IMG/VR virus record: IMGVR_UViG_3300020044_005637
Coordinates: 1 to 45,359 of that record
Length of the DNA stretch: 45,359 bases
Source of the DNA: a virus
Lineage: Duplodnaviria; Caudoviricetes
Reading direction: 5' to 3' (one strand)
This document shows, piece after piece, positions 14,474 to 44,589 of this stretch. The notes under the pieces were generated by a model. That model saw only the letters and a list, made by a program, of their open reading frames with translations. It searched no databases and was not told where the DNA came from. How positions within the stretch are numbered: the stretch's first letter is position 1; every line of letters starts with the position of its first letter. Made by a program: the position numbers and the translations under genes.

Positions 14474-16285
14474 ATGGCTGGACTGAAGTTATCTGCTTTT
14501 GCTGGTATAGCCCCGAGGGTTGGCGTAGCTTTGTTGAAAGACAATGAGGCTGAGACAGCAATCAACACCAAGCTATATAGCGGAGAACTTCGCTCATGGA
14601 ATAAGCCAAACGAAGTTGCTGGGGCTAACAACATCGTGGCTAACGCCATGTCAATCTATAAGCACAAAGACGCATCGGGTGGAGATTTGTGGCTTTCATG
14701 GACAACAGATGTGAACGTTGTTCCAAGCCCAATTTTCGATACCGGCCAAAGTCCAATCTATTACACAGGCTCAGGCACACCAAAGAAAACAAACTCAACT
14801 CTATCTGAAACAGGTTCTTCTCCATACCCCGGAGATTATTACGAGATGGGTGTGCCTGCGCCAACATCAGCTCCAAGCGTTTCTGCTGCTGGTGGCTCTG
14901 GCACAGCAGAGAGTCGTGTATATCTGTTCACCTATATATCACTCTTTGGAACAATCGAAGAAGAGTCTGCTCCATCTCCTGCGTCATCTGTTATATCTGT
15001 TCTACCGGGCGGCACTGTGACTGTATCTGGATTGGGGACAACAGCACCTGCTGGCGACTACAACATAACAACAAAGAGAATCTACCGTGCAGTGTCCGGA
15101 ACAAACAGCACTATCTATTTAAAGGTAGCTGATGTCTCCATTGGAACAGCATCGTATTCAGATACAAAAACCGCCACCCAGTTGGGCGTTGCCTTGAGTT
15201 CGTCTAATTACAACCCGCCGCCATCTGACTTGCAGGGCATCTCCTCAATGGCAAACGGCATTTTGGTTGGGTTCAGAGAAAACGAAATTTACTTTTCAGA
15301 ACCGTATATCCCGCATGCTTGGCCTGCTGAATACTCACTAACTGTTGAGTACCCAATTGTTGGTATCGGTTGCTTTGGAGAATCTGTTGTTGTTGCTACG
15401 CAGGGCAATCCATTTGTCATTAGCGGATCAACGCCACAATCAATGTCTCAGGCAAAGATCCCATTGTTTGAGCCTTGCGTCTCCAAGAGATCAATTGTTT
15501 CTGATGACACTGGCGTTATGTATGCATCGCCAAACGGCATTGTAAAAATTGCTCAGGGTTTTGCTGGACTAGCTACAAATGGATTGTTCACTCGTGATGA
15601 GTGGCAGCGCAAGAAGCCATCCACCATGCTTGGCGCTATTCTTGATGGAGCGTATTATCTGTTCTGGGAAGATATAACAAATGAAATTCAACGATGTCTA
15701 ATCCTAGATAGGAATGAAGTAGCCTCTGCACTGACAGAGACATCTGTTTACACAAAAGCATCTTTTGTAGATCCGACATCAGCCCAGTTGTACTTTTCTA
15801 TAAATGATGAGATCAATGAGTGGGAGGGGAACTCAAATAGTTATTTGTCTTACGAGTGGCTATCAAAACTGTTTATTCTCCCAAGGCCTTTGAACTTCTC
15901 TGCCTTGCAGGTAGAAGCAAACTTTGAAGACGTTGACCTTGCTAATGCCTTGATCGCAGAGAACGCAGCAGTAGTCGCAGCAAACCAAGCATTGTTTTCA
16001 TCTGGTGCTGATTTAATGGCGGCATTAAATGCACACGTTGTTAACAGCATGTACGTCAACGGCTCATTGATGGCAGAAACTCCTGATGAGGTTTCTAGTA
16101 GATTCATTCAAATATCTATCTACTGCAATGGGACTTTGGTCACTACAAGACAGATTACAGATAGGAATGCATATCGACTTCCATCTGGCTTCAAGGGTGA
16201 CCGCTGGCAATTCAAGGTAACTGGCAACGTTCCGATCAAAGCAATTAAATTTGCTGAGACCGCAAAGGAGCTTGCCGAGTTATGA
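14474..16285 (+). CDS. Tail nozzle/DNA stabilisation protein (tail tubular B, P22 gp10-like role)
   Basis: 603 aa, beta-rich; FSEPYIPHAWP and RLPSGFK motifs; directly precedes the ejection genes. Confidence 0.7.
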   Translation: MAGLKLSAFAGIAPRVGVALLKDNEAETAINTKLYSGELRSWNKPNEVAGANNIVANAMSIYKHKDASGGDLWLSWTTDVNVVPSPIFDTGQSPIYYTGSGTPKKTNSTLSETGSSPYPGDYYEMGVPAPTSAPSVSAAGGSGTAESRVYLFTYISLFGTIEEESAPSPASSVISVLPGGTVTVSGLGTTAPAGDYNITTKRIYRAVSGTNSTIYLKVADVSIGTASYSDTKTATQLGVALSSSNYNPPPSDLQGISSMANGILVGFRENEIYFSEPYIPHAWPAEYSLTVEYPIVGIGCFGESVVVATQGNPFVISGSTPQSMSQAKIPLFEPCVSKRSIVSDDTGVMYASPNGIVKIAQGFAGLATNGLFTRDEWQRKKPSTMLGAILDGAYYLFWEDITNEIQRCLILDRNEVASALTETSVYTKASFVDPTSAQLYFSINDEINEWEGNSNSYLSYEWLSKLFILPRPLNFSALQVEANFEDVDLANALIAENAAVVAANQALFSSGADLMAALNAHVVNSMYVNGSLMAETPDEVSSRFIQISIYCNGTLVTTRQITDRNAYRLPSGFKGDRWQFKVTGNVPIKAIKFAETAKELAEL

Positions 16286-16482
16286 GAAAGCCAGCCATCC
16301 CCAGCCTGTTACCTATTAAAGATGCATCTCTTGCGGCTGTATTGGCTCCGATGAAAGAGAACATTGAGATCATCAATGGCAGCCGTGAAGGGTTGTTGAC
16401 TACATTACCAACAGATGCGACGCTTGCTCAGGCAGTTGCAAAGATAAACGAAATCATCATCAGGCTGAACTTCCATGAATGA
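16282..16482 (+). CDS. Small hypothetical virion protein
   Basis: Coupled at both ends; KPAIPS...MKENIEIING motif. Confidence 0.6.
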   Translation: MRKPAIPSLLPIKDASLAAVLAPMKENIEIINGSREGLLTTLPTDATLAQAVAKINEIIIRLNFHE

Positions 16483-16915
16483 CATAGAGTTTTTAAGATA
16501 TGCAATGCGTGACGACATGGATGCCGTAGGTCTTGTGCTTTCTGTTGTAAAGATAACTGATATATGGGACAACCTGATTGACAAAGACAAGCCAGTAACA
16601 GACGAGGAAATCAACCAAGTCTTTTGGATGATGCTTGTTGAGATGCCGAGGAACCCAGCATTCCGCAGGTATCAACTGGACATCACCACTGTAATGAGCA
16701 CTGGAATAATTAACTGGCACGTTGCCAATAAATTGCAGACTGGCGACGATCATGCAAAACAGATTGCCCACGTTATTCGCTATTCAATATCAGACATCGC
16801 TTTGTATTTGGCATCAGCAATTGGTGGTGCTGAATGGGCGGCGGAAGTTGGCCCCGAGCTTCGACTACGCTCTCAGAAGGATAAGTTAGAAAACTTTATG
16901 AAGGAAATGAAATGA
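16475..16915 (+). CDS. All-helical protein with a DDxxD-like motif (possible isoprenoid-synthase fold)
   Basis: ITDIWDNLIDKD acidic motif in a helical context; function is inference. Confidence 0.4.
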   Translation: MNDIEFLRYAMRDDMDAVGLVLSVVKITDIWDNLIDKDKPVTDEEINQVFWMMLVEMPRNPAFRRYQLDITTVMSTGIINWHVANKLQTGDDHAKQIAHVIRYSISDIALYLASAIGGAEWAAEVGPELRLRSQKDKLENFMKEMK

Positions 16916-18057
16916 AAGTCAAAACCAAGAAACAGCTTGCTCAAGCAAAACTTGACTTCCTTATAGAACAGGGCGGGGCATGTGCGGCATTAGCTTGCCA
17001 TTTTGATCTTGGTGGAGATAGTCCACCCGACACAAATCCCGGACAGATTGCTGCCGCTGAATCTGCAACTGAAGTAGGCAAGATGCAAAGAGATACTGCG
17101 ATGGAGTATTTGAACTTCTCTAAAGAGCAGTATGCAGATTTCAAAGACGACCTGAAAGAGATTGCTCAGGCTCAAAAGAAGATCATGTCGGATACTGCTG
17201 CCCGTGGTGAGGAGTATGCAGCCTACGAGCGGGAGACATTCCGCCCACTGGAGAAGCGCCTTGTCTCTGAAGCCGAGGCATATGCAACTCCCGCCAAGCA
17301 AGAGGAACTGGCATCTCAAGGTATGGCTGACGTGGCTCAGGCTTATCAGATGCAACGCCAGCAGGCTTTGGACACAATGGCGAAGTACGGCATCAATCCG
17401 AACTCAGCAAGATTTGCAGCCATCAATGCTCAGCTTGGTCAAGGCGAAGCTGCTGCCCGTGCAGGCGTAGCCACAAAGTCAAGGATTGCCGCAGAGGAGA
17501 TGGGCCGTGCCCGTCTGTATGACGCTGCCGCCCTTGGCCGTGGCTTGGCTTCAAACGCCACATCAGCCGCAGGAACCGCAGTGGCCGCTGGAACATCGGC
17601 AGGCGGATCTTTCCAAGCTCCGGGTGAATACATGAGCAAGTCTTATGGACAGACTGGACAGATGCTTGGTGGAGCCTCTTCATCTTTTGGAACAGCAGGA
17701 AACATCTACGGCCAAGAGTTCAACTCTCGCATGCAGGGATATAACGCTCAACAACAAGCCAAAGGCGACATGATGAGTGGAGTAGGTAAGGCTGTTGGTA
17801 TGTGGGCTGGTGGCGGATTTGCAATGCCGTTTGCCGATGGCGGAGAAACAAAACGCCTTGGACGCAAAGGGAAGGTATCTGGCCCCGGTGGGCCTGTCGA
17901 TGACAAGATACCTGCCATGTTATCTGACGGTGAATATGTCTTGCCAGCAGACACAGTTAAGGCCATCGGTACAAAGAAACTAGACAAGCTGGTTAAGAAA
18001 ACACACACGCCTGCCGCAACTCAGCGCCGTCGGGCACTTAACAAAGGGAGCGCATGA
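16912..18057 (+). CDS. DNA ejection/pilot protein 1
   Basis: Ala/Gly/Gln-rich; GINPNSARF motif; C-terminal GPGGPVDDKIPAMLSDGEYV domain. Confidence 0.7.
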   Translation: MKVKTKKQLAQAKLDFLIEQGGACAALACHFDLGGDSPPDTNPGQIAAAESATEVGKMQRDTAMEYLNFSKEQYADFKDDLKEIAQAQKKIMSDTAARGEEYAAYERETFRPLEKRLVSEAEAYATPAKQEELASQGMADVAQAYQMQRQQALDTMAKYGINPNSARFAAINAQLGQGEAAARAGVATKSRIAAEEMGRARLYDAAALGRGLASNATSAAGTAVAAGTSAGGSFQAPGEYMSKSYGQTGQMLGGASSSFGTAGNIYGQEFNSRMQGYNAQQQAKGDMMSGVGKAVGMWAGGGFAMPFADGGETKRLGRKGKVSGPGGPVDDKIPAMLSDGEYVLPADTVKAIGTKKLDKLVKKTHTPAATQRRRALNKGSA

Positions 18058-19361
18058 TGGCAACAGGATTAGGTGCATTGATTTCTGGAGGCGTAGAAGG
18101 CTATCAGACAGTCAAGGAGATGCAACGCAAGGAAGCATTGCAAAAGAGAGAAGATCAACGCTTTGCAATGGAGCAACAGCGTTTTGATATAGAGAAGCAG
18201 AGATCAGAGCGTGAATTGGAGCAGCAGAGATTGGCTGACGAGGCCAAGAAAGAAGCTCTTTCCGTTATGGATGACGCAAAGTATGGACGTGGTGCGTTTG
18301 CAAAACTAGCAGACCCAACAAAAGTTCAGGCAGTCCAGCAGGCTACTCAATCTGTCGAACAGAAAGCAGGTACAAGTTATGACAGAGCGGAGGCCCGAAG
18401 ACTCGGCAGACCTATCGATGAGACCCAGACAGCCTCGGTTACTCCGCAAGAAGAGAACATCTTCAAGCAGGGTGGTGAGGGTTTGTACGCAGACCAGCGT
18501 GCTGCTGACAACTTGAAGTACCAGTTGATTGGCGAAGCAATGAAGAAGTCGCTCATCAATAAAGGTGATTTTGGTCAAGCCATGCTGGTTGACAGAGACA
18601 TCAAGAAGATGGAAGAGGAAGGCTACGAGCTTCAGCGCAAGAAAGCTGCGGCTCTTGTTATGGCTGGCGCTGCTCCAGAGCAGGTGGTTCCTGCACTTCA
18701 AAAGGTCTATGGTTTTATTGATGATGGCAAATCTATCGACCCAAAGAAAACTACCTTTGATGCAAAGACCAACACATACAACATAGCTGTTGTAGATCAG
18801 AAAACGGGCGAGGTTTCGACACGTCCAATGAATCAACAATCTATGCTGTCTGCATTGAATCAACTCAACCCTGCTCAAGTTCTTGATCTGAATATCAATT
18901 CAGCACGTCGTGCTGAAGATCTGGCGACAGCGGCAGCTAACCGCAAAGAAGATATTCTGCTTAAAAATCGTGAGCTTGACATTAAGAATAAAGAAGCTGG
19001 TGCTACGCTGGCATTCAGAAGCGCACAGATGACTGCTTTGCAAGATCAAGTCAAAGGTGCAGATGCAAAAGCCAAGGCAGAGACCATAGACAAGAGCTTC
19101 CCTTATGCTGACAAGGTGTATTCAGCAACCGACTTGGTTGGTAAAACAGATGCAGAAAAAGAACAACTAAAGGGCATGGTTGCAGCGGACACAAGATCAA
19201 GAAACTATGCTGTTGGCTTGGCTTCTCTGAATCCAAAGATCGATCCAAGGATTATCATTGGGGCAGCAAAAGCTGCGTCAACGACATACCCGAATCTTCA
19301 AAAAGACAAGTCAGGTCGCAGCTACTTCAGCTACGGTGGAAGTCAAATCTACATAGATTAA
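18054..19361 (+). CDS. DNA ejection protein 2
   Basis: GLGALISGGVEGY N-terminus then coiled coil; lies between ejection genes. Confidence 0.65.
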   Translation: MMATGLGALISGGVEGYQTVKEMQRKEALQKREDQRFAMEQQRFDIEKQRSERELEQQRLADEAKKEALSVMDDAKYGRGAFAKLADPTKVQAVQQATQSVEQKAGTSYDRAEARRLGRPIDETQTASVTPQEENIFKQGGEGLYADQRAADNLKYQLIGEAMKKSLINKGDFGQAMLVDRDIKKMEEEGYELQRKKAAALVMAGAAPEQVVPALQKVYGFIDDGKSIDPKKTTFDAKTNTYNIAVVDQKTGEVSTRPMNQQSMLSALNQLNPAQVLDLNINSARRAEDLATAAANRKEDILLKNRELDIKNKEAGATLAFRSAQMTALQDQVKGADAKAKAETIDKSFPYADKVYSATDLVGKTDAEKEQLKGMVAADTRSRNYAVGLASLNPKIDPRIIIGAAKAASTTYPNLQKDKSGRSYFSYGGSQIYID

Positions 19362-19370
19362 GAGGCAACA

Positions 19371-22300
19371 ATGGCAACAGGTCTGTCTTTACTTGGGTTG
19401 GATGACAAAGAAGAAAACCCTCTTTTTCTATCCAAAGAGGAGGCGCTGTCCACTGATGTTCTTCCACGCTCAAGAGGTTTTGAGCCTGCGCCAAGAACAG
19501 CTTTGGCCGTCCCATCTTCATCAGCTACTCCAACACCTGCGGGTGAGGAAAGAATGTCACTGGCAAGCATCCTTGATGCAAAGCTGAGTGCGCCTGTACC
19601 TCAGACCACTGGTGATCTAGCTGCTCCTGCTGAAGAAAAACGACAGAGCCTATCCAGTATCTTGGATTCAAAATTTGGAGTGACAGTTCCTTCGACAGAG
19701 CCTGCTGCAAAGCCTGCCGAAGAGACGGGCGACTTCCTTCGGGGTGGCGCAACAGCACTGGGACAGACACCAGCACTGGCATATGGTGCACTTGGACTAG
19801 CCGGAGCCGCTGGTGAGAAGGTCTTTGGAGAGGGTGGGTCAATGTCCTCCCTCAAGAAGTTTGGTCTCAATGAGTACCAGACCAGAATGAAAGAGATTGG
19901 CGCAACAGCCAAAGATACAGATGACGTAACCAAGGCTTGGGCAAGAGCCAAGCAAGGAGACCTTGGTGCGCTGGTTGACTGGGCGCAGTATGGCGTTGGC
20001 TACCTTGGCGGAAATATTGTTGAGACTGTTGCTACATCTGCTCTTGGCGGTCTGGTTGGTGGTTTTGCTGCTGGCCCTGCCGCACCTGCTGGTGCTGTAG
20101 CTGGTGCTGCCACTGGTGTGGTTGCTAGAGATGCTGTCAAGGGTGTGACCAAGAACCTCATCGAGGGCATGGTCGCCAAGGAAGCAGCTCGTCTGGCAGA
20201 AAAGGCTGGCGTTGAGACAGCAACAGATGTAATGCTGAAAGAAGCCACAAAGAATGTGGCAAAGAGCATTGGCTCTGGCGTTGCGCTGGCTGGCTCAAGC
20301 ATCATCAAAGAGACGGGTGGAATCTATGGTGAAGCTGAAGAGCAGGCGACCAAAGAAGGGCGTGAGCTATCGAGTGGAGATTTGGCTCGTGTCTTTGGTT
20401 CCGGCGTACTGGCTGGTCTGTCTGAGTTTGCAACAGATAAGCTGGGTCTTGAAGCTGCGGCTGGAAGGATAAAGATACCGGGTGGCGGTAGAACTGGCCG
20501 GGCGCTGATCGGTGGTGCAGCCGGTGTTGGTGCAGAAGGCGGGACAGAACTGTTCCAGACGGCTGTTGAACGTTTTGGCGCAGGGAAAACCCTGACTGGT
20601 GAAGATGCCATGAACGAGTACATCAATGCATTTGCATTGGGCGGGCTGGGTGGCGGCACAGTCGGCGCAGTAGTTGGCGCATTCCGTGATGGTAAAGCAT
20701 CAGCAGATAGAGTGCGACAGATTCTGGATCAGGCCAAAGCTGACATGACTTCTGACGATGGCCGTCAGGAATTGTTCGACGCAATGTACGACGATCCAAA
20801 GATTGGCGCAATTCTTCAGGCCAACAACATTGAATCTGGAGACGACCCAAGATTCCAAGATGTCATCATCAAGGCACTGGCAACACAGCGCATGTTGGTT
20901 GACTTAGAGGCTCCAACTCCTGAAGTCAGAGCTGAAACCAGAAAGCAGCGTGAGGCAGACATTCTTGCCGCATTTGGTGAGACGGCATCTACGGCAGTGG
21001 GCGGAAACACTGGTGCAATAGAGCCTGTTATCCAACGATCCAGCGTCACTCCTAATGAGGATACACGTACTCTGGAGGGCGAGGCTCAGCCGGTAATTCT
21101 CCCAGAGACAACAGGTGGTCAGGCCGGTACAGTGGCTCTCTCTCCTGAAGATTTGGCTGCCAGACGGGAAGGCTTCGAGCCGCTGGTTGGAATCCAGACA
21201 GAGGCAGGCCCTGTCGCAAACAGATTCTCTTTAGTCATAGATGCCGTGGAGTTTTTGGAAGGAAAGCTAGACCAAAAGACGCAGCAACGCACTGGTGGTT
21301 ACGCTCAGGCCGTCTTAGATAAACAAGGTCTTGAGGCAAGAATTCGTCGGGGTAAGCAATCCGCAGCCGAAGGCGGTAACACGTTCTACTTTATCGAGAC
21401 ACGCAAGAAGCCAACAGAGGCAGCTCCGGTAGTAACAGCTCCAGCTCCGGCGGTAACGCCTGCCGCTCCGGTAGTAACGCCTTCCGTCACCCCAACAAAG
21501 GGCAAGAAAGCCACCATCCCTGCACTTACACCAGAGGAAGAGCAGCAACAGATTCCGCTTCGCACTAGAGCAGAGGAAATAGCAAACGAGTTGGAGACAT
21601 TGGGCGGAGACAAGAATTTAATTCAAGGTATCCGCTCCACTGTAGCCAACAAATCCCGCATTCAGAATAACGATTTCTATGAAAGCAAGCTGGCTGAACT
21701 GAAAGCACTCAAAGGAGTTGGAGTGCAGAAGGTGACAGAGCAGCGTAATCTGTCTGCATACCTCTCCAGCAGCAAACGAGATCAAGGTCGCTACAACGAA
21801 TACATTGGCAATGCAGACATAGGCCCATTCTTGCAGTCGGCCAATGACGCTATTCAACAATTGACCACATTCATCAACAACCTTGGATACGCTGTTGCTG
21901 ATGTGAATAATGCGACTCCTGACAAACGTGCATTGTTTGCCAAGAACCTCATGTCTCAGATTGCTGGCTCAACATCTAGGATGCTGTTGAAGCGGGAGGC
22001 ATTTGACAAGAAATATAAGAGCGCAAACCTTGAGCAGAAGAACAAGTCCCTTGTGGATTTGCAAAAAGATCTTGTCGCAGCGCAAGAGTATTTAACCAAA
22101 CAGGGAGAACCAAATGCCACTCAAACAAGGCAAGTCACAGAAGGTGGTCAGCCAAAACGTGAAGACACTGGTGGAGGACTTCAAACGGTCGGGGAAAATC
22201 GGAACGTCACACCCCAAGAACAAACAAACGGCAGTGAAACAGGCGGTAGCAATAAGCCTGTCGAAGGCGGGGCGCAGCCGCAAGAAGTAAAACCAGCAGT

Positions 22301-25300
22301 CGACCCTGCATTACAGGCTCGCATCAAAGACCGAATCAACAAGGCATACGAAGAGAGTGGCCTTGACTTGGAAGATGTGGTCAAGCTAAACAAGATGGTC
22401 GATGATGGCGATTTGGCTGGGGCAGTCGCACAGATGAAGAAGATTGTTGAAAACAATCTGGGTGCGGGTGCTGGCGCTAGGTTCAGCATGAGCAGGGAGC
22501 AACAGACCACCACTACCGGAAGGGATTTTAGCTATGCCAAGCTCAAAACGGTTGACGATCTCAACAGCGAAGTCAGAGCCTATCTCAAAAGACAAGGCAG
22601 CACCGGAACCTTCACGGCGAAAAGAGTTCCTCTGGGCGATATTGTTGGAAAGGTTCCCGGCATCTCTGCCGTCCAACGAGTTGCCGCTCTGTTCGGAAAA
22701 AAGCCTGTCTATTTTGCAGTGGAGGAAGGAAGTATCAATGACTTCGACGGGGCAGTCCTTTCGGGGTCGGACACCATCTTCATCAACGTAAACAGCAGCC
22801 GTCCACATATCCGTATCTTCGGCCATGAGCTTGTGCATTCACTCCGTGCGTCCAACAACTCGACGTACAGAAGGCTGGTCAACTCACTGACACCTCTGCT
22901 CGATCAGGCTGGAATGCTGGATTACGCAATGGTCATGGGTAAAGAGGGAGTGAAAGATCCCGCACTGATTCTGGAAGAAGCCATCGGAGATATTGTTGGC
23001 GACAGATTCGGTGAGTCTGCCTTCTGGCAAATGCTGGCTGATGACAACCCAACGATGTTTGAGCAGGTTGCTCGCATTGTCATGGACTTCATTGACAATG
23101 TACTTGCGAAGCTGCGTGGAGACCAGAGCCTTGGCTCAAAGAATCTAGTGACAGATTTGAATGCTGTGCGTCGTGCAGTTGCTGATGTTCTCGGAAGCAT
23201 ACAGCAGCCGACACAAGAAGCCGCAGTTCAAGCAGAAGCAGGCATTCAGTTCAGCCGATCAAAAGAAAATGAGACCTTCTACTCTGCAATGGAGCGTGGA
23301 TTTGAGTCTGTCAAACAAGCATCTATGCCTGCACAACAGTGGAAGGCGTGGCTTAATTCAAACAAGTCTAAGCTCGGTATCAAGAACGCTGAGATCGAGT
23401 GGACTGGTATTGAGGAGTGGCTTGATCTACAAGAAGGCAAAGTAGAGAAGCAGGACATTCTGAACTGGATTGCTGGCAACAAAGTCCAACTCAATGACAT
23501 TATTCTTGATGGATCTGGCAAGTATTTAAGTGATGATGATATTCTTGAGATGTATTCACAAAGCACTGGCGAATACATAGAAGACATTACTCTGACAAGA
23601 CAAGAAATGATTGATGAGATGTCTTTGCCTGAGTACATGCTCAAGGGTACTAAACACAACAGGGCAACAGGAAGAACTCCAACTGTTCTCCCTTATGGCA
23701 AAGACTACTTTGAACTTGTTCTGACAGAGCCATCAATAGCTCCGTACAACGACACGGATACGATTCACTTTGGTGACGTTGCTGGAGGAAAGCATATCGG
23801 CTGGATTCGTGCAAATATCAGAAAAGATACTGAAGGCAATGATGTCTTGTTCTTAGAAGAAATTCAAAGTCAACGTGCTCAGTCAGCTAGAGATGTTGGC
23901 ATTGTTGATGGCAAGAACAAAGACATACCAAGTAACTGGACTGTTGAGGAATCTTTCGACAAGTACGGCAACTCTATGGGTTGGGCAGTTCTTAATGACA
24001 GCAAGACCCAAGTTGGCTTGTATGGAGACACAAAAGAAGAGGCAATTCAATCTGCATTGGCGAGCGGTGTACCAAATGCACCATTCATTAAAGAAACAAA
24101 ATCATGGGTTGCATTGCTGATTAAAAGGGCCATTGCTTATGCACAAACAAAAGGCATAGACAGAATCTCTTGGACTACTGGAGATCAGCAAAATCAACGG
24201 TACAGGCTGTCTGAATCTGTTGATGAGATTTATTACGACAAATATGATAATGGCGCTTATGAGGTGTCGGCACAGAAGGATGGAAAAGAAATTGGCATTG
24301 GTTCTGGTCGCCTTACTTTGGGACGCATACGTCAAATCTACGGCAAAGATATTGCCAAGATGATTGAGGATGGATCTGGCGAAAAGACTGATGCAGGCGT
24401 GTCTGTTATTCGAGGAAAAAATCTTGATGCTGGCGGATCTGGAATGCGTGAGTTTTATGATGTCATTGTTCCATCCGTTGCCAGATCAATCATTGGGAAG
24501 TCTGGAACTGTTGATGTCATGTACGCCATCACTAGAGATCCATATATGGATTCTCCAATAAATGTGGTTGGTATTGGTGACGGCAAATATCAGTTGATGC
24601 GTAATGTTGATGGCGAAGAAACACCCGTCAGCAAAAAATTTGATTCTTTTGATGAGGCAAAAAATTCTCGTGTTTCAATGTATGCGGCTGAAGACATGGG
24701 GGCTACACCGCAACTTGGCTTTGTAATTCCTGAATCTCTGCAAGAGCAGGTCGCCAACGATGGCTTCCCAATGTTCAGTCGTCGCCGATACGAGGAACAG
24801 TTCTCTGACCTCGATGACAAAACAAAAGAGGCGGCCATACGTAAGGGCTACTACACTCCTCCGACAATCAAAGAGCGACTCGATCATTTGAAGCCACGCA
24901 TATGGGATCGCATTATCCAAGGAACATTCGACAAGTTCCGTGCAGTAAGAGGCGTTAGCGAGAAGGCATACATGATGTTGCGTATGTCGGCTGGATCACA
25001 AGATGGTGCTGTATCTACACTCCTGCACTATGGTCAGGTGTTCGATGATGACGGCGCATTGAATGTGAAGAAGGGAACGAGTGGATTGCTCGATGTTCTG
25101 AAGCCAGTGGGTGGAGAGGTTGATCGCTTCCTGCTTTGGATCGCAGCTAACCGTGCCGCCAATCTGTCGAAGGATGAACGAGAGCGTTTCTTCAAGCCAG
25201 AAGATATTCGCATGCTTCAGAAGCTGAACATGGGAACCATGAAGGACGGAAGCTCCCGGGTCGGCGTGTACGCTGAGGCCCTGAAGAACATGAATGAGTT

Positions 25301-27377
25301 GAACAGATCTGTCCTAGATGTCGCAAGATCAACAGGGCTTATCGATGCTGAAGCATACAAGCGATTCTCTGCTGACATTTGGTATGTTCCGTTCTACCGC
25401 CAAATGGAAGACGACGGCAGCTTGTCTGCTGCTCAAACATCTTCTGGTGCTGTTGGTCAGTATCTGTCCAAGAAGTTGAAGGGTAGCGACCGCCCATTAA
25501 ATGACCTAATGGAAAACGTCTTGATGAACTGGACGCACATTCTGTCCGCCTCGATGAAGAACAAGGCTGCGGTCGAAACTTTGAAAGCCGCATCAGACAT
25601 GGGCGACATTGTCACCAAACTTCCTGCCCAGATGAAAGGCGCAGTGAAGGTAATGGAGGGCGGCAAAGAAACCTACTACCAGATCGATGATGAATTCCTG
25701 ATGAACTCACTGACCGCAGTGGCTCAGGCTCCAAGTTATGGATTCTGGATGGACACTGCCCGTGGGTTTAAGACTACGCTGACAAGATTTATCTCCTTGT
25801 CCCCCACCTTCAAGATCAACAACTTGATTCGAGACTCAATCCAATCTATTGGCCTGTCTGAGCTGAGCAATAACCCAATGGGTAACGTCTTGCAGGGATG
25901 GAGAGCATACAAGGATGACCGAGCAGAAGCCTTGGCCGGTGGCGGCTTGTTCGCTATGGGCAACGCATTTGATGGAGACCAGTCCGCAGCCGTGAAGCGC
26001 CTGCTTAAGACAGGCGTGAACAAGGCTGACATCCTCGATACCAAAGAAAAGGCAGCGGCATTCTTTGCATCTGTTCAGGATAAGTACGACGAGCTGAGTG
26101 ATGCATCTGAGAATGCCAACCGCCTTGCTCTGTACCAGCAACTCCGAGCAAAGGGTGCATCTCATCTTGAGGCATCGTATGCTGCCAGAGATTTGCAAGA
26201 CTTCAGCTTGCAGGGTGGATGGACAGCAATCAGATACGCATCACAGGTTCTGCCGTACTTCAATGCTCGCTTACAGGGTATGTACAAGTTGGGTAGAGAT
26301 GGCCTCGATCCAACCATGCAGGTACTGACCGGCAAGGCATCCGACACTGAGAGACAGAAGGCAGCAAAGTTTGCTACCGTCACTGGTGCGGTTGTGACTG
26401 TTGCCATGATCTTGTATCTGTCACAGAAAGACGACGACGACTGGAAGAAGCGTGAGGATTGGGATCGTGATGCCTTCTTCTGGTTTAAGTTGCCGGGCAC
26501 AGACAAAGCCGTCCGCATTCCAAAGCCATTCGAGATGGGCGCAATCGCAACTATTGTCGAGAGGGCCTTAGAGCAGATGGTTGACTCCAGTGTAGAGGGC
26601 AAGGTCTTTGGGCAAAGATTGCTCCACGTCCTGACAGACAACTTTGCCATCAACCCAATACCTCAGGCTGTTCGCCCCATCTACGACATCGCTCGCAACA
26701 AGGATGGGTTCACTGACCGCCCAATCGAATCTATGGGTATGGAGCGCATCTCTGTCGAGAACAGAGTCAGCCCCGGAACATCAGGTGCTGCCGTTGCAAT
26801 CGGTACGATCAACAGCATGTTTGCTGAGTTTGCGTCCAAGGTAACGGGCGGCGCAATCAACTCACAATCTGTTCAGTTGTCGCCGATCCAGTACGACTAC
26901 ATGATTAAGGGATACCTTGGTTGGGTCGGCACAGGAATCCAGACAGCGTCGAATGTGATGGCAACCCCATTCAAAGATGGGGCATCATCCAGATACGAGC
27001 GCATCGATGACTACTTGGTTGTCGGCAACTTTGTGAAGACCGTGCCACAGTCACAATCCCGCTACGTCACATCGTTCTACGAGAACGCCAAAGACATAGC
27101 GACGGCATCAGCAGATGTCAGTCACTTCCTAAATGCTGGGCAGTTTGAGAAGGCCAATGAAATCTACTTAGCAAAAGCTGATAAGCTGGCGCTGGCTAAG
27201 CTGTACAACAAGGGCACGAACATGATGTCATCCATCAGCAACCAGATCAAGATGGTTGAAGACGATAAGGTGATGACTGGCGCACAGAAGAGATTGGAGA
27301 TTGAGCGGCTTCAACAGGTACGCATACAGATAGCGAAGGACGTTGAAGACGTTCGCATTTCCTCCAAGAAAAAATGA
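19371..27377 (+). CDS. Giant ejection/internal virion polyvalent protein (2668 aa) with HExxH zincin-like segment and LPD38-like C-terminus
   Basis: Gly/Ala-rich hydrophobic N-region; GHELVH...EEAIGD; LFLEEIQS domain; RIPKPFEMG C-terminal motif. Confidence 0.8.
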   Translation: MATGLSLLGLDDKEENPLFLSKEEALSTDVLPRSRGFEPAPRTALAVPSSSATPTPAGEERMSLASILDAKLSAPVPQTTGDLAAPAEEKRQSLSSILDSKFGVTVPSTEPAAKPAEETGDFLRGGATALGQTPALAYGALGLAGAAGEKVFGEGGSMSSLKKFGLNEYQTRMKEIGATAKDTDDVTKAWARAKQGDLGALVDWAQYGVGYLGGNIVETVATSALGGLVGGFAAGPAAPAGAVAGAATGVVARDAVKGVTKNLIEGMVAKEAARLAEKAGVETATDVMLKEATKNVAKSIGSGVALAGSSIIKETGGIYGEAEEQATKEGRELSSGDLARVFGSGVLAGLSEFATDKLGLEAAAGRIKIPGGGRTGRALIGGAAGVGAEGGTELFQTAVERFGAGKTLTGEDAMNEYINAFALGGLGGGTVGAVVGAFRDGKASADRVRQILDQAKADMTSDDGRQELFDAMYDDPKIGAILQANNIESGDDPRFQDVIIKALATQRMLVDLEAPTPEVRAETRKQREADILAAFGETASTAVGGNTGAIEPVIQRSSVTPNEDTRTLEGEAQPVILPETTGGQAGTVALSPEDLAARREGFEPLVGIQTEAGPVANRFSLVIDAVEFLEGKLDQKTQQRTGGYAQAVLDKQGLEARIRRGKQSAAEGGNTFYFIETRKKPTEAAPVVTAPAPAVTPAAPVVTPSVTPTKGKKATIPALTPEEEQQQIPLRTRAEEIANELETLGGDKNLIQGIRSTVANKSRIQNNDFYESKLAELKALKGVGVQKVTEQRNLSAYLSSSKRDQGRYNEYIGNADIGPFLQSANDAIQQLTTFINNLGYAVADVNNATPDKRALFAKNLMSQIAGSTSRMLLKREAFDKKYKSANLEQKNKSLVDLQKDLVAAQEYLTKQGEPNATQTRQVTEGGQPKREDTGGGLQTVGENRNVTPQEQTNGSETGGSNKPVEGGAQPQEVKPAVDPALQARIKDRINKAYEESGLDLEDVVKLNKMVDDGDLAGAVAQMKKIVENNLGAGAGARFSMSREQQTTTTGRDFSYAKLKTVDDLNSEVRAYLKRQGSTGTFTAKRVPLGDIVGKVPGISAVQRVAALFGKKPVYFAVEEGSINDFDGAVLSGSDTIFINVNSSRPHIRIFGHELVHSLRASNNSTYRRLVNSLTPLLDQAGMLDYAMVMGKEGVKDPALILEEAIGDIVGDRFGESAFWQMLADDNPTMFEQVARIVMDFIDNVLAKLRGDQSLGSKNLVTDLNAVRRAVADVLGSIQQPTQEAAVQAEAGIQFSRSKENETFYSAMERGFESVKQASMPAQQWKAWLNSNKSKLGIKNAEIEWTGIEEWLDLQEGKVEKQDILNWIAGNKVQLNDIILDGSGKYLSDDDILEMYSQSTGEYIEDITLTRQEMIDEMSLPEYMLKGTKHNRATGRTPTVLPYGKDYFELVLTEPSIAPYNDTDTIHFGDVAGGKHIGWIRANIRKDTEGNDVLFLEEIQSQRAQSARDVGIVDGKNKDIPSNWTVEESFDKYGNSMGWAVLNDSKTQVGLYGDTKEEAIQSALASGVPNAPFIKETKSWVALLIKRAIAYAQTKGIDRISWTTGDQQNQRYRLSESVDEIYYDKYDNGAYEVSAQKDGKEIGIGSGRLTLGRIRQIYGKDIAKMIEDGSGEKTDAGVSVIRGKNLDAGGSGMREFYDVIVPSVARSIIGKSGTVDVMYAITRDPYMDSPINVVGIGDGKYQLMRNVDGEETPVSKKFDSFDEAKNSRVSMYAAEDMGATPQLGFVIPESLQEQVANDGFPMFSRRRYEEQFSDLDDKTKEAAIRKGYYTPPTIKERLDHLKPRIWDRIIQGTFDKFRAVRGVSEKAYMMLRMSAGSQDGAVSTLLHYGQVFDDDGALNVKKGTSGLLDVLKPVGGEVDRFLLWIAANRAANLSKDERERFFKPEDIRMLQKLNMGTMKDGSSRVGVYAEALKNMNELNRSVLDVARSTGLIDAEAYKRFSADIWYVPFYRQMEDDGSLSAAQTSSGAVGQYLSKKLKGSDRPLNDLMENVLMNWTHILSASMKNKAAVETLKAASDMGDIVTKLPAQMKGAVKVMEGGKETYYQIDDEFLMNSLTAVAQAPSYGFWMDTARGFKTTLTRFISLSPTFKINNLIRDSIQSIGLSELSNNPMGNVLQGWRAYKDDRAEALAGGGLFAMGNAFDGDQSAAVKRLLKTGVNKADILDTKEKAAAFFASVQDKYDELSDASENANRLALYQQLRAKGASHLEASYAARDLQDFSLQGGWTAIRYASQVLPYFNARLQGMYKLGRDGLDPTMQVLTGKASDTERQKAAKFATVTGAVVTVAMILYLSQKDDDDWKKREDWDRDAFFWFKLPGTDKAVRIPKPFEMGAIATIVERALEQMVDSSVEGKVFGQRLLHVLTDNFAINPIPQAVRPIYDIARNKDGFTDRPIESMGMERISVENRVSPGTSGAAVAIGTINSMFAEFASKVTGGAINSQSVQLSPIQYDYMIKGYLGWVGTGIQTASNVMATPFKDGASSRYERIDDYLVVGNFVKTVPQSQSRYVTSFYENAKDIATASADVSHFLNAGQFEKANEIYLAKADKLALAKLYNKGTNMMSSISNQIKMVEDDKVMTGAQKRLEIERLQQVRIQIAKDVEDVRISSKKK
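21421..21482 (+). repeat. Imperfect tandem repeat (gctccgg(t/c)(a/g)gtaac x3) coding an APVVT/APAVT linker
   Basis: Seen directly in the sequence. Confidence 0.7.
22114..22290 (+). CDS. Nested 58-aa basic protein in the +1 frame of the giant gene (DUF6496-like)
   Basis: GGAG RBS then MPLKQGKSQKVVSQNVKTLVEDFKRSGKIGTSHPKNKQTAVKQAVAISLSKAGRSRKK*; KQAVAI.LSKAG is a recognisable phage family motif. Confidence 0.8.
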   Translation: MPLKQGKSQKVVSQNVKTLVEDFKRSGKIGTSHPKNKQTAVKQAVAISLSKAGRSRKK

Positions 27378-28000
27378 AGGAGTGCAGTAAGTCTATGCTT
27401 CGCAGAGTTCGTGATCCGAACTTTGTGAGGCGCTACTTTGTTGGCGACGGCATAGACATTGGTGGCAAGCCAGACCCCATCTCAGCACATAGGGATATGT
27501 TCAGTGGCATGGGTAAGGTGAGGGTGTGGGATTGGGATGATGGTGATGCTCAGCATATGTCTGGACTCGCAGCCGAATCCTTAGACTTCGTCCACAGCAG
27601 CCACTGCCTTGAGCATCTGGTCAACCCACGTCAGGGATTAAAGACTTGGTTCAATCTGTTGAAGCCAAGCGGACACCTGATCGTGACCGTGCCTGATGAG
27701 GACTTGTATGAGCAGGGCGTATTTCCAAGCACATACAACTCAGATCATAAGTGGACGTTTACTACGTACAAAAAATACTCTTGGTCAGACCAGTCTATTA
27801 ACGTGACAGATTTGGTTGTTGGGCTGGGTGAGCTGGCCGAGGTAATTAAGATCGAGATGATTACTGAGAACTACCAGTACGGCACGAACAGAATAGACCA
27901 AACACTGTTCCCCGGAACAGAGTGTGCGATTGAGTTTATTGTTCGAAAGAGAACAGTTCAAGAGCTTGCCGACAGAGGAAGATGGAGGAGATCGATATGA
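27374..28000 (+). CDS. Class I SAM-dependent methyltransferase
   Basis: GIDIGG motif I; LDFVHSSHCLEHL; LLKPSGHLIVTVPD. Confidence 0.85.
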   Translation: MKECSKSMLRRVRDPNFVRRYFVGDGIDIGGKPDPISAHRDMFSGMGKVRVWDWDDGDAQHMSGLAAESLDFVHSSHCLEHLVNPRQGLKTWFNLLKPSGHLIVTVPDEDLYEQGVFPSTYNSDHKWTFTTYKKYSWSDQSINVTDLVVGLGELAEVIKIEMITENYQYGTNRIDQTLFPGTECAIEFIVRKRTVQELADRGRWRRSI

Positions 28001-43437: not shown

Positions 43438-44589
43438 TCAGACCTCTACTTTCTTGATTTCGTCGGCTGACCAACCTTCAAAGAAGGTCGCTTTGATCTC
43501 CTCGACTGTCTCTCCGGCCTTGAGCAACTTCGTTGCATCGAGGAGGAATCGAGTTGACATAACTCGACGGAGTCGAGCTTCATTGATTCGTTTACGAATC
43601 GCCCAACCCCAAGCCAACAGGTCAGGGGCTACGGACTTTCTCTCGAAAGTCTGGTCATAGTCGAGGGAGATAACACCGGCACGGAATCTGTCCAGTGTCG
43701 ACTCATCGAGTCGTTCACGACCGGCATAAGTCTGGTTTGCTCCAGTACCGAAGGTATTGGCGGCGGCAATACAGACGAAGTCTGGATGACGTTTGACCAG
43801 TGACGCTCCCTTTCTGATCGGCAAAAAGAACGATCCATTGGCGAGAGCCTGATTCAGAAACAGCAAGGTATTGCTGTCTGCACCGTCGACTTCGTCGAAA
43901 AGGAACACACCGCCCTCTTCGTACATTCTGACGAAGTCAGATGTAAGGTACTGGAAAGAGCCACCGTCAGAGGGAATCAACCAGCCCTGAAGGGCTGACT
44001 CTGACATTCCGGCAGTACAGGAGACAGATGCAAACGGTCTACCAAGAGCTTCAGCTACTTGGTGACCAAGGTGTGTCTTACCGCATCCGGCAGGGCCAAC
44101 TAACAGAATGTTGATGCCGAGAGATGCTCTGGTCAGAATTTTCTTAAATTCTGGTCGAGTGTGGCCTTCCACTTTGTGGGCTGAACCGTCAGGTCTAACG
44201 ACCTCGATTTTGACAATTGGACTATCGTCCATTGCTTTTTTGACTTCGGCCATGACAATCTGTCGGACAGTTTCCTCATCTACTGTCGGAGACAGTAAGG
44301 CTTGAAGAGCCGCTAAAGCGGCAGTCGCATCAGCCTTGGGAGCCGAAGGCTTGGTAGTAGGTGGCACAGGGCGACCCTCCTCTGAAATTGCAACCCCTTT
44401 AGGGTTGACGGTTGGGATGCCGTTTGACATGGCATCAGTGATCTGACCTTCGGAGAAGGCCAGTAGTAATCTGTCGATCAAGTCCAATTTTTGGACGGTC
44501 TCGAAGTTGAAACCTACGGTTCCACCGTTGAGGTGGCGAAAAATCCAGAGGATTTCGGGTTTGGAGAGGGAAACGAGAGAGTCACGCAT
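43438..44589 (-). CDS. MoxR/CbbQ/CobS-like AAA+ ATPase
   Basis: Walker A GPAGCGKT; Walker B FLFDEVD; AANTFG; LDESTLDRF arginine finger. Confidence 0.9.
   Translation of the reverse strand: MRDSLVSLSKPEILWIFRHLNGGTVGFNFETVQKLDLIDRLLLAFSEGQITDAMSNGIPTVNPKGVAISEEGRPVPPTTKPSAPKADATAALAALQALLSPTVDEETVRQIVMAEVKKAMDDSPIVKIEVVRPDGSAHKVEGHTRPEFKKILTRASLGINILLVGPAGCGKTHLGHQVAEALGRPFASVSCTAGMSESALQGWLIPSDGGSFQYLTSDFVRMYEEGGVFLFDEVDGADSNTLLFLNQALANGSFFLPIRKGASLVKRHPDFVCIAAANTFGTGANQTYAGRERLDESTLDRFRAGVISLDYDQTFERKSVAPDLLAWGWAIRKRINEARLRRVMSTRFLLDATKLLKAGETVEEIKATFFEGWSADEIKKVEV

Follow-up and report, generated by a model that had tools for sequence, protein, structure and literature searches.

A putative small basic gene nested in the +1 frame of giant polyvalent-protein genes of phages

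Can an 8-kb phage gene hold a complete second gene, which of the two frames came first, and what would the small product do? These questions are raised by a linear viral contig of 45,359 nt, 82% complete, the full length of which is referred to here as the window. A sequence-only reading proposed that a small basic gene with its own GGAG ribosome-binding site (RBS) lies complete in the +1 frame of a giant gene, and the ORF, its frame and its RBS were all confirmed. The ORF at 22114-22290 (+) is intact, with exactly the letters first given, and encodes a basic protein of 58 aa. It is in the +1 frame relative to the ORF at 19371-27377, at an offset of 2743 nt, and is the only copy of its family (PHROG 2423) in the record.

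Start signals and the giant host gene

The small ORF is a nested gene in that its own start, RBS and stop lie wholly within another ORF in a different frame. A Shine-Dalgarno (SD) motif, GGGAG, stands at 22103-22107 (+), 6 nt ahead of the nested ATG. Across loci the start codon and RBS are conserved, and an SD of at least 4 nt precedes 25 of 30 distinct nested starts, compared with 320 of 3524 +1-frame ATGs in giant host genes. Scanning for internal promoters gave one weak sigma-70-like site against 0.5 expected, and no terminator for the nested gene was found in the promoter/terminator scan. Structure in the mRNA around the nested start is no more than mildly weak (in 10 loci, 7-44% of host windows are equally so) and was given no weight. 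The conserved RBS, together with the selection described below, makes translation from the gene's own RBS on the late mRNA likely.

Alternatively, a programmed +1 frameshift might join the basic module onto the N-terminal part of the host protein and so yield a second, short product in place of a free 58-aa protein. One sequence from one contig (P0178, 785 aa) is such a fusion, and in three loci the +1 frame is open for 84-85 codons upstream. However, P0178 is probably explained by a single one-base indel, and the open stretch 5' of the nested start varies from 4 to 85 codons over 29 loci. In the window, a +1-frame stop at 22093-22095 (+), 6 codons 5' of the nested start, restricts any frameshift path from the host into the nested frame. 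Together with the conserved start codon and RBS, and the N-terminal position of the module in most family members, this makes a frameshift very improbable.

The host gene (19371-27377, +) was identified from its ORF and domain matches as encoding a large polyvalent protein of 2668 aa: it is very large, carries an LPD38 domain at residues 2355-2533 (26433-26969, +; E 9.1e-32) and lies among virion genes. PHROG matches at 14474-19361 (+), 5' of the host, comprise an internal virion protein (phrog_511) and structural proteins (phrog_8003 and phrog_9667). LPD38 is listed as specific to phage-type polyvalent proteins in the available text of PMC5512222. It is shared by the window's host with those proteins and with phi24B gp47, which was found in virions and proposed as an ejection protein (bioRxiv 10.64898/2026.04.10.717836, available text). 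Given the parallel with gp47 and the neighbouring virion genes, the host product is probably a virion-packaged ejection protein.

Terminase and major capsid families had no match among the window ORFs scanned; in a complete relative, the terminase, portal-like and major capsid genes lie upstream of the genes that open the window. Other +1 ORFs in the window's host gene had no real PHROG or Pfam family match. Elsewhere in the window, a class I SAM methyltransferase gene (27374-28000) overlaps the host stop codon, and an AAA ATPase of the CobS/'porphyrin biosynthesis' type (phrog_249) is encoded at 43438-44589 (-).

Over the overlap, the host frame had been described as a linker, and its composition agrees: residues about 915-974 (22113-22292, +), the shadow of the nested gene, form a G/Q/E/T-rich, polar and hydrophobic-poor stretch. 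F, W, Y, I, L and M make up 1.7% of residues there and 22.5% of the whole protein, and 0.4% of the 60-aa windows of the host protein are equally low.

Family membership and recurrence in other contigs

The 58-aa peptide belongs to PHROG 2423, whose profile it matches in two stretches (E 1.8e-12, 48 bits). Against Pfam DUF6496 (PF20106) it scores 14.9 bits, under the gathering cut-off of 24, so of the original description as DUF6496-like the likeness to a related family holds and Pfam membership does not. Other family members have precomputed PF20106 matches, as does 17% of one Atlas cluster. Judged by sequence, the small protein is related to DUF6496 yet below formal membership.

The homology check that had been suggested did find free-standing relatives. 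A profile of 40 sequences matches 3,586 clusters (50% identity), and in cultured phages the homologues include annotated genes of their own. The family match begins at residue 1-5 in 132 of the 150 best profile matches, and the family occurs in myo-, sipho- and podo-type cultured phages and in protease fusions. Free-standing proteins such as those of SCUT-S1 ORF22, the post-portal gene of DSL-LC04 and phiEap-2 gene 24, placed in the same family by profile, have N-terminal MPL and KQAxAI motifs, shortness, basicity and an own RBS in common with the nested protein. They differ in that the nested copy is wholly within a giant gene, falls under the Pfam cut-off and is of the long form, which has an internal hairpin absent from the short form.

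Nesting recurs widely. Of the 80 best viral loci, 37 have the family gene in the +1 frame within an ORF of 796-3304 codons, a length that contig ends truncate in some of them; this, with the PHROG 2423 match, puts the window's ORF far beyond chance. Two further loci, L088 and L183, bring the total to 39 other viral contigs nested alike. Once the cassette is masked, the window's host and the other 37 hosts sort into six clusters with little common sequence. Their C-terminal matches across clusters are to LPD38, DdrB-ParB, glucosaminidase or DarB-like domains, and the host of L050 has no match. In one contig (L019/L114), the giant host gene is broken into parts of 1769 and 1055 codons, the break lying 3' of an intact nested gene.

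Since a family-profile search favours intact copies, the host gene alone was also used as a query. The host N-terminus retrieved 24 loci, one of them too short; in the other 23, where broken copies were looked for with stops read through, the nested gene was intact in 19, broken in none and absent from four. Frequent +1-frame stops in relatives, which the sequence-only reading had named as counting against a gene, were thus not seen in these host-found relatives. The four without the gene are 57-72% identical in the query region, with no trace of it. Searching with the host C-terminus (41 of 42 loci run, L003 having been analysed earlier) led largely to the same contigs and to no decayed copy. 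The family is absent anywhere in eight of nine near-complete related records, the ninth being a nested contig, and the nested gene is therefore accessory. The idea that kin without the nested copy carry a free one was rejected, as only one of 21 records matched and this was the contig of nested L007. Among the matches listed for cultured phages (part of 479 matching records, a minority of which were checked for nesting), no nested form was seen.

Other small +1 ORFs were met in giant genes. Where sister hosts have no copy of the family, another type of +1 ORF, short, basic and helical, stands at a comparable position (L098:10207-10353, L133:6507-6656 and L136:7563-7733). These are 34-43% alike mutually and unrelated to PHROG 2423; in viral contigs the type recovered nothing but itself or tape-measure noise, PHROG and Pfam gave no match, and the L136-type ORF had four weak database matches. 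Seven more SD-led +1 ORFs (L136:6522-6710, L138:522-797, L140:3315-3518, L144:3906-4034, L049:9512-9688, L040:12047-12226 and L143:5307-5438) matched nothing in PHROG or Pfam below E 0.01. In cultured phages, unannotated +1 ORFs with coding-like codon use were likewise met inside LPD38-type giant genes and are possible bench models. These include a strong candidate in Aeromonas phage phiARM81mr (L412:3889-4080), as well as ORFs in Vibrio 1.232.O (L414:5515-5634) and Achromobacter CF418P1 (L411:6825-6929).

This distribution bears on one possible role, in which the small protein would serve the giant one specifically, as its chaperone or loading factor, and nesting would fix their co-inheritance and ratio. 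Nesting in giant virion genes of six host clusters is in keeping with such a role, as are the other small +1 ORFs of sister hosts. However, the hosts have so little sequence in common that a common binding site is unlikely, orthologous hosts occur in complete genomes without the family, and most family members lie outside any giant-gene overlap. A chaperone is accordingly a decidedly improbable reading.

Selection and the relative age of the two frames

A comparison of dN/dS in both frames, also suggested at the outset, favours the nested one. Pairwise estimates of dN/dS from 13 distinct close sequences come to 0.27 for the nested frame, as opposed to 1.50 for the host frame, and a second host group (5 sequences) gives 0.18 and 6.66; the sequences compared here and below are related, so that their counts are not independent and independence is overstated. 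Free-standing controls give 0.11, lower than the 0.27 of the nested frame, and 1.72 in their stop-ridden -1 frame. Because these controls reach 1.72 where no host protein is read, host values of 1.5-6.7 are a shadow of the inner gene and not adaptation.

The positions of change tell the same story. Counted in nine genomes that have the 3' flank in common, variable columns at host codon positions 1/2/3 come to 32/14/12 for the overlap, against 12/13/43 for that flank (p 2e-6). On a 22-sequence tree, 100 amino-acid changes fall in the nested frame compared with 211 in the host frame. In contigs from four independent runs, six of the seven listed in-ORF differences are at nested third positions, with 65 further differences over the same stretch lying outside those seven. 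By these sequence comparisons, purifying selection acts on the small protein while the host stretch drifts.

The outer frame is also maintained across the overlap, only as open and polar. All 25 nested copies are free of -1 stops, where 0.14 such copies would be expected; free viral copies have 3.74 stops against 3.99 expected (n=46). T-ending codons are scarce in nested copies even where harmless (13 of 559, against 343 of 1084 in free copies), and their avoidance keeps T-starting codons, and with them aromatic, Leu, Ser and Cys codons, out of the host linker.

These patterns weigh on the proposal that a recent capture left the ORF behind as an untranslated relic, retained only through its position in an essential host gene. 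Changes fall mostly at the third position of nested codons, the first of host codons; no decayed copy was found among the relatives examined; and nested starts are enriched in RBSs. The relic reading is largely refuted, and its chances are slight in the extreme. The 58-codon ORF is, on these sequence grounds, very probably a real translated gene.

Which frame is older is a separate question. A new overprinted frame is expected to have the narrower phylogenetic range, according to the available text of PMC8227390. De novo overprinting of the inner frame does not fit, as that frame matches 3,586 clusters, and the host-frame stretch carries stops in all 13 free controls. The sequence-only reading had the small gene overprinted inside the giant gene; by the range criterion of PMC8227390, the small gene is instead quite probably the older frame and the host linker the overprint. 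Its suggestion that the giant gene absorbed a whole gene as a linker fits the breadth of the family and the sharp borders of the cassette.

Such a capture may be pictured in steps. A free-standing gene would have come to lie within the variable region of a giant gene, the giant frame would then have read through it in the -1 frame, and this frame would have become a polar linker once the small gene lost its T-ending codons. That the -1 frame turns polar when T-ending codons are removed points to the linker as the new frame and the small gene as the old one. Read-through seems an easy route, given how often free copies overlap or lie open in the -1 frame. For example, an IMG/VR sample (3 of 64 parts scanned, the best 80 of 245 loci kept) holds, among those best 80 of 245, two loci nested in giant genes, 26 in which an upstream long ORF, usually portal-sized, enters the small gene by 2-12 codons in the -1 frame, and four more in which the -1 frame spans the whole small gene into its neighbour. 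The -1 frame is open over 42 codons in 31 of 180 distinct free copies. At L211:2-1672, a terminase-like gene, the -1 frame of the small gene and the next gene are all joined in one open frame, which may be a snapshot of read-through fusion or an assembly error.

The borders of the cassette are sharp. Just 5' of it lies a swappable host module (21490-22092, +) where DNA homology breaks in relatives. The point at which homology to the window resumes lies 12-22 nt ahead of the ATG in 11 of 13 close relatives, and six upstream module types occur among 15 loci. Two relatives have insertions directly after the nested stop, and loose ends fall at 22100-22104 in three of four metagenome runs. From this we infer that the doubly constrained cassette acts as a fixed point between swapped host modules. 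A split ancestor, in which gene A, the small gene and gene B were fused, was also considered and rejected: no relative retrieved with the host gene has its host split at the cassette, and that of L114/L019 is split elsewhere.

The direction of movement may not always have been from free to nested. The family tree, built from 53-58 columns, is poorly resolved; an AU test against a single nested clade is borderline (p 0.043), and the grouping of the main nested clade with chromosomal copies of Betaproteobacteria is weakly supported. Nested L050 (L050:10001) is 79% identical in nucleotides to Bacteroidota chromosomal copies, compared with 65% to any nested copy, and its leader is common to them. 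These Bacteroidota copies carry 1.70 -1 stops against 4.47 expected, and 13 of 43 are open against 0.19 expected. Some bacterial chromosomal copies therefore look, by sequence, like escapees from nested ones. Among Bacteroidota-labelled and similar MAG contigs (L260-L306), free-standing copies with an open or nearly open -1 frame were observed.

The shortage of -1 stops in the Bacteroidota copies, with the leader of nested L050, could also be taken to mean that the whole family was born by overprinting in giant-gene linkers and repeatedly escaped to a free-standing state. However, free viral copies hold no such -1 memory, nested copies are a small minority, and the family spans myo-, sipho- and podo-type phages and protease fusions, all of which leaves birth in linkers rather improbable.

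Nested genes and linker-forming overlaps are already known kinds. One parallel is the spacer/pre-S region of the hepatitis B polymerase: in one model, as far as section 8 of PMC8227390 describes it, a short gene between polymerase parts is read through as a linker domain, the same geometry as that proposed here, and the section also cites a study treating pre-S/S as the new frame. Hepatitis B is a single eukaryotic virus lineage, whereas the present case concerns a widespread free-standing family in several dissimilar dsDNA phage hosts. In phage lambda, Rz1 lies wholly inside Rz on the same strand with its own start. The same holds for gene E inside D of phiX174, an inner gene with its own start on the same strand (PMC8227390, available text). 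In both of these pairs the inner gene is held to be new or a partner of the outer; here, it is likely older, the outer gene is 8 kb long, and a partnership between the two is not part of the reading.

The putative product and what it would mean

The AlphaFold model of the 58-aa protein has a helix at residues 9-26, a short hairpin and a second helix at 37-52 (pLDDT 86.7). The C-terminal helix-turn-helix of the P22 scaffold, a capsid-anchoring module, would be a possible parallel to this fold. No match under E 0.24 was found when the PDB was searched with the sequence, and Foldseek found none at E 0.001 in the PDB or BFVD. The top BFVD rows are mostly uncharacterised phage proteins at 30-44% identity. 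A VIA structure search was uninformative (best Z 5.0), with no clear match to a solved capsid-binding helix pair.

Genomic context points to the phage head. Free copies come after the portal gene in DSL-LC04; in Pbunavirus they are flanked by head-morphogenesis and protease genes, and in phiEap-2 the copy (gene 24) belongs to the head region. Prohead-protease-type proteins of BcepB1A, Obolenskvirus NJ02 and Lbo-JY16 also begin with the module at their N-terminus (25-36 bits). In BcepB1A gp26 (L149:4001-4300), the family module is followed by a Nudix-like stretch and then a head protease, all in one protein. ORF22 of Pbunavirus SCUT-S1 is a distant short-form member with a C-terminal extension (28.6 bits to the family profile). 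It was detected by 7 peptides at 77% coverage in LiCl/DNase-treated, DNA-emptied ghost particles (PMC6521218, Table 1), a preparation that, according to the available text of the same paper, also held non-structural proteins, including a helicase and an exonuclease.

On these analogies, the product is somewhat more probably than otherwise an accessory protein of the head interior. In such a model, a helix-hairpin-helix with basic ends would line the inside of the head, on the shell or on DNA, and the same module at an N-terminus would bring proteases and other cargo into proheads. The reading as a whole, a nested gene of a widespread small basic family translated from its own RBS into a head-interior accessory protein, is likewise modestly favoured.

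The main rival also accepts a real gene and places its product in the cell, as a small basic nucleic-acid- or ribosome-binding protein of a general-stress type, acting either in the protection or condensation of phage DNA or in the tuning of late translation. Several observations fit. The net charge of the protein is +0.22 per residue; copies occur on the chromosomes of Betaproteobacteria and Bacteroidota, and the main nested clade's grouping with the former, weakly supported, suits a cellular role. Some of 23 chromosomal loci, surveyed with no control set, adjoin CsbD, YflT, DUF883, OsmC, Usp, GlgB, YegS-like and sugar-metabolism genes. Across these 23 loci, free copies on bacterial contigs have no phage Pfam families among 113 neighbours, and such contexts count against a head role because there is no capsid there. 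Nor are all free copies in cultured phages found in head modules: some stand among tRNA genes or follow the endolysin. Against the cellular role stand the head-module positions, the protease fusions and the homologue in ghost particles, and nucleic-acid binding is equally compatible with a function inside the head. A purely cellular product is therefore considered unlikely.

The claim that standard annotation misses the nested gene was borne out. In an exact look-up among ~15 billion called proteins, only one of ten nested proteins was present, compared with ten of ten free-standing ones, and the seven closest database matches are on short contigs (0.9-2.5 kb) that truncate the host gene. A literature search mainly of freely available papers found no paper on DUF6496, PHROG 2423, PF20106 or the N-terminal motif, and none on genes nested in giant or polyvalent phage virion genes. 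The available text on nesting and overlap in PMC5512222 and bioRxiv 10.64898/2026.04.10.717836 likewise mentions no nested or overlapping genes within polyvalent genes.

A broader picture can be offered only tentatively and is less likely than not. Variable linkers of giant ejection genes could be harbours that repeatedly swallow whole small genes by -1 read-through. The genes would stay functional there, serve as fixed homology islands between swapped domains and later be set free again, even to bacterial chromosomes, and the PHROG 2423 module could be a general N-terminal unit for head loading and DNA lining.

In summary, the nested gene exposes a layer of phage genes that is dropped by gene callers. 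It would provide a clean natural example of overprinting in reverse, with the outer frame as the newcomer and with free-standing ancestors at hand for comparison. Apparent positive selection in such linkers would be accounted for as the shadow of an inner gene, and a family of 3,586 clusters may be linked to the phage head.
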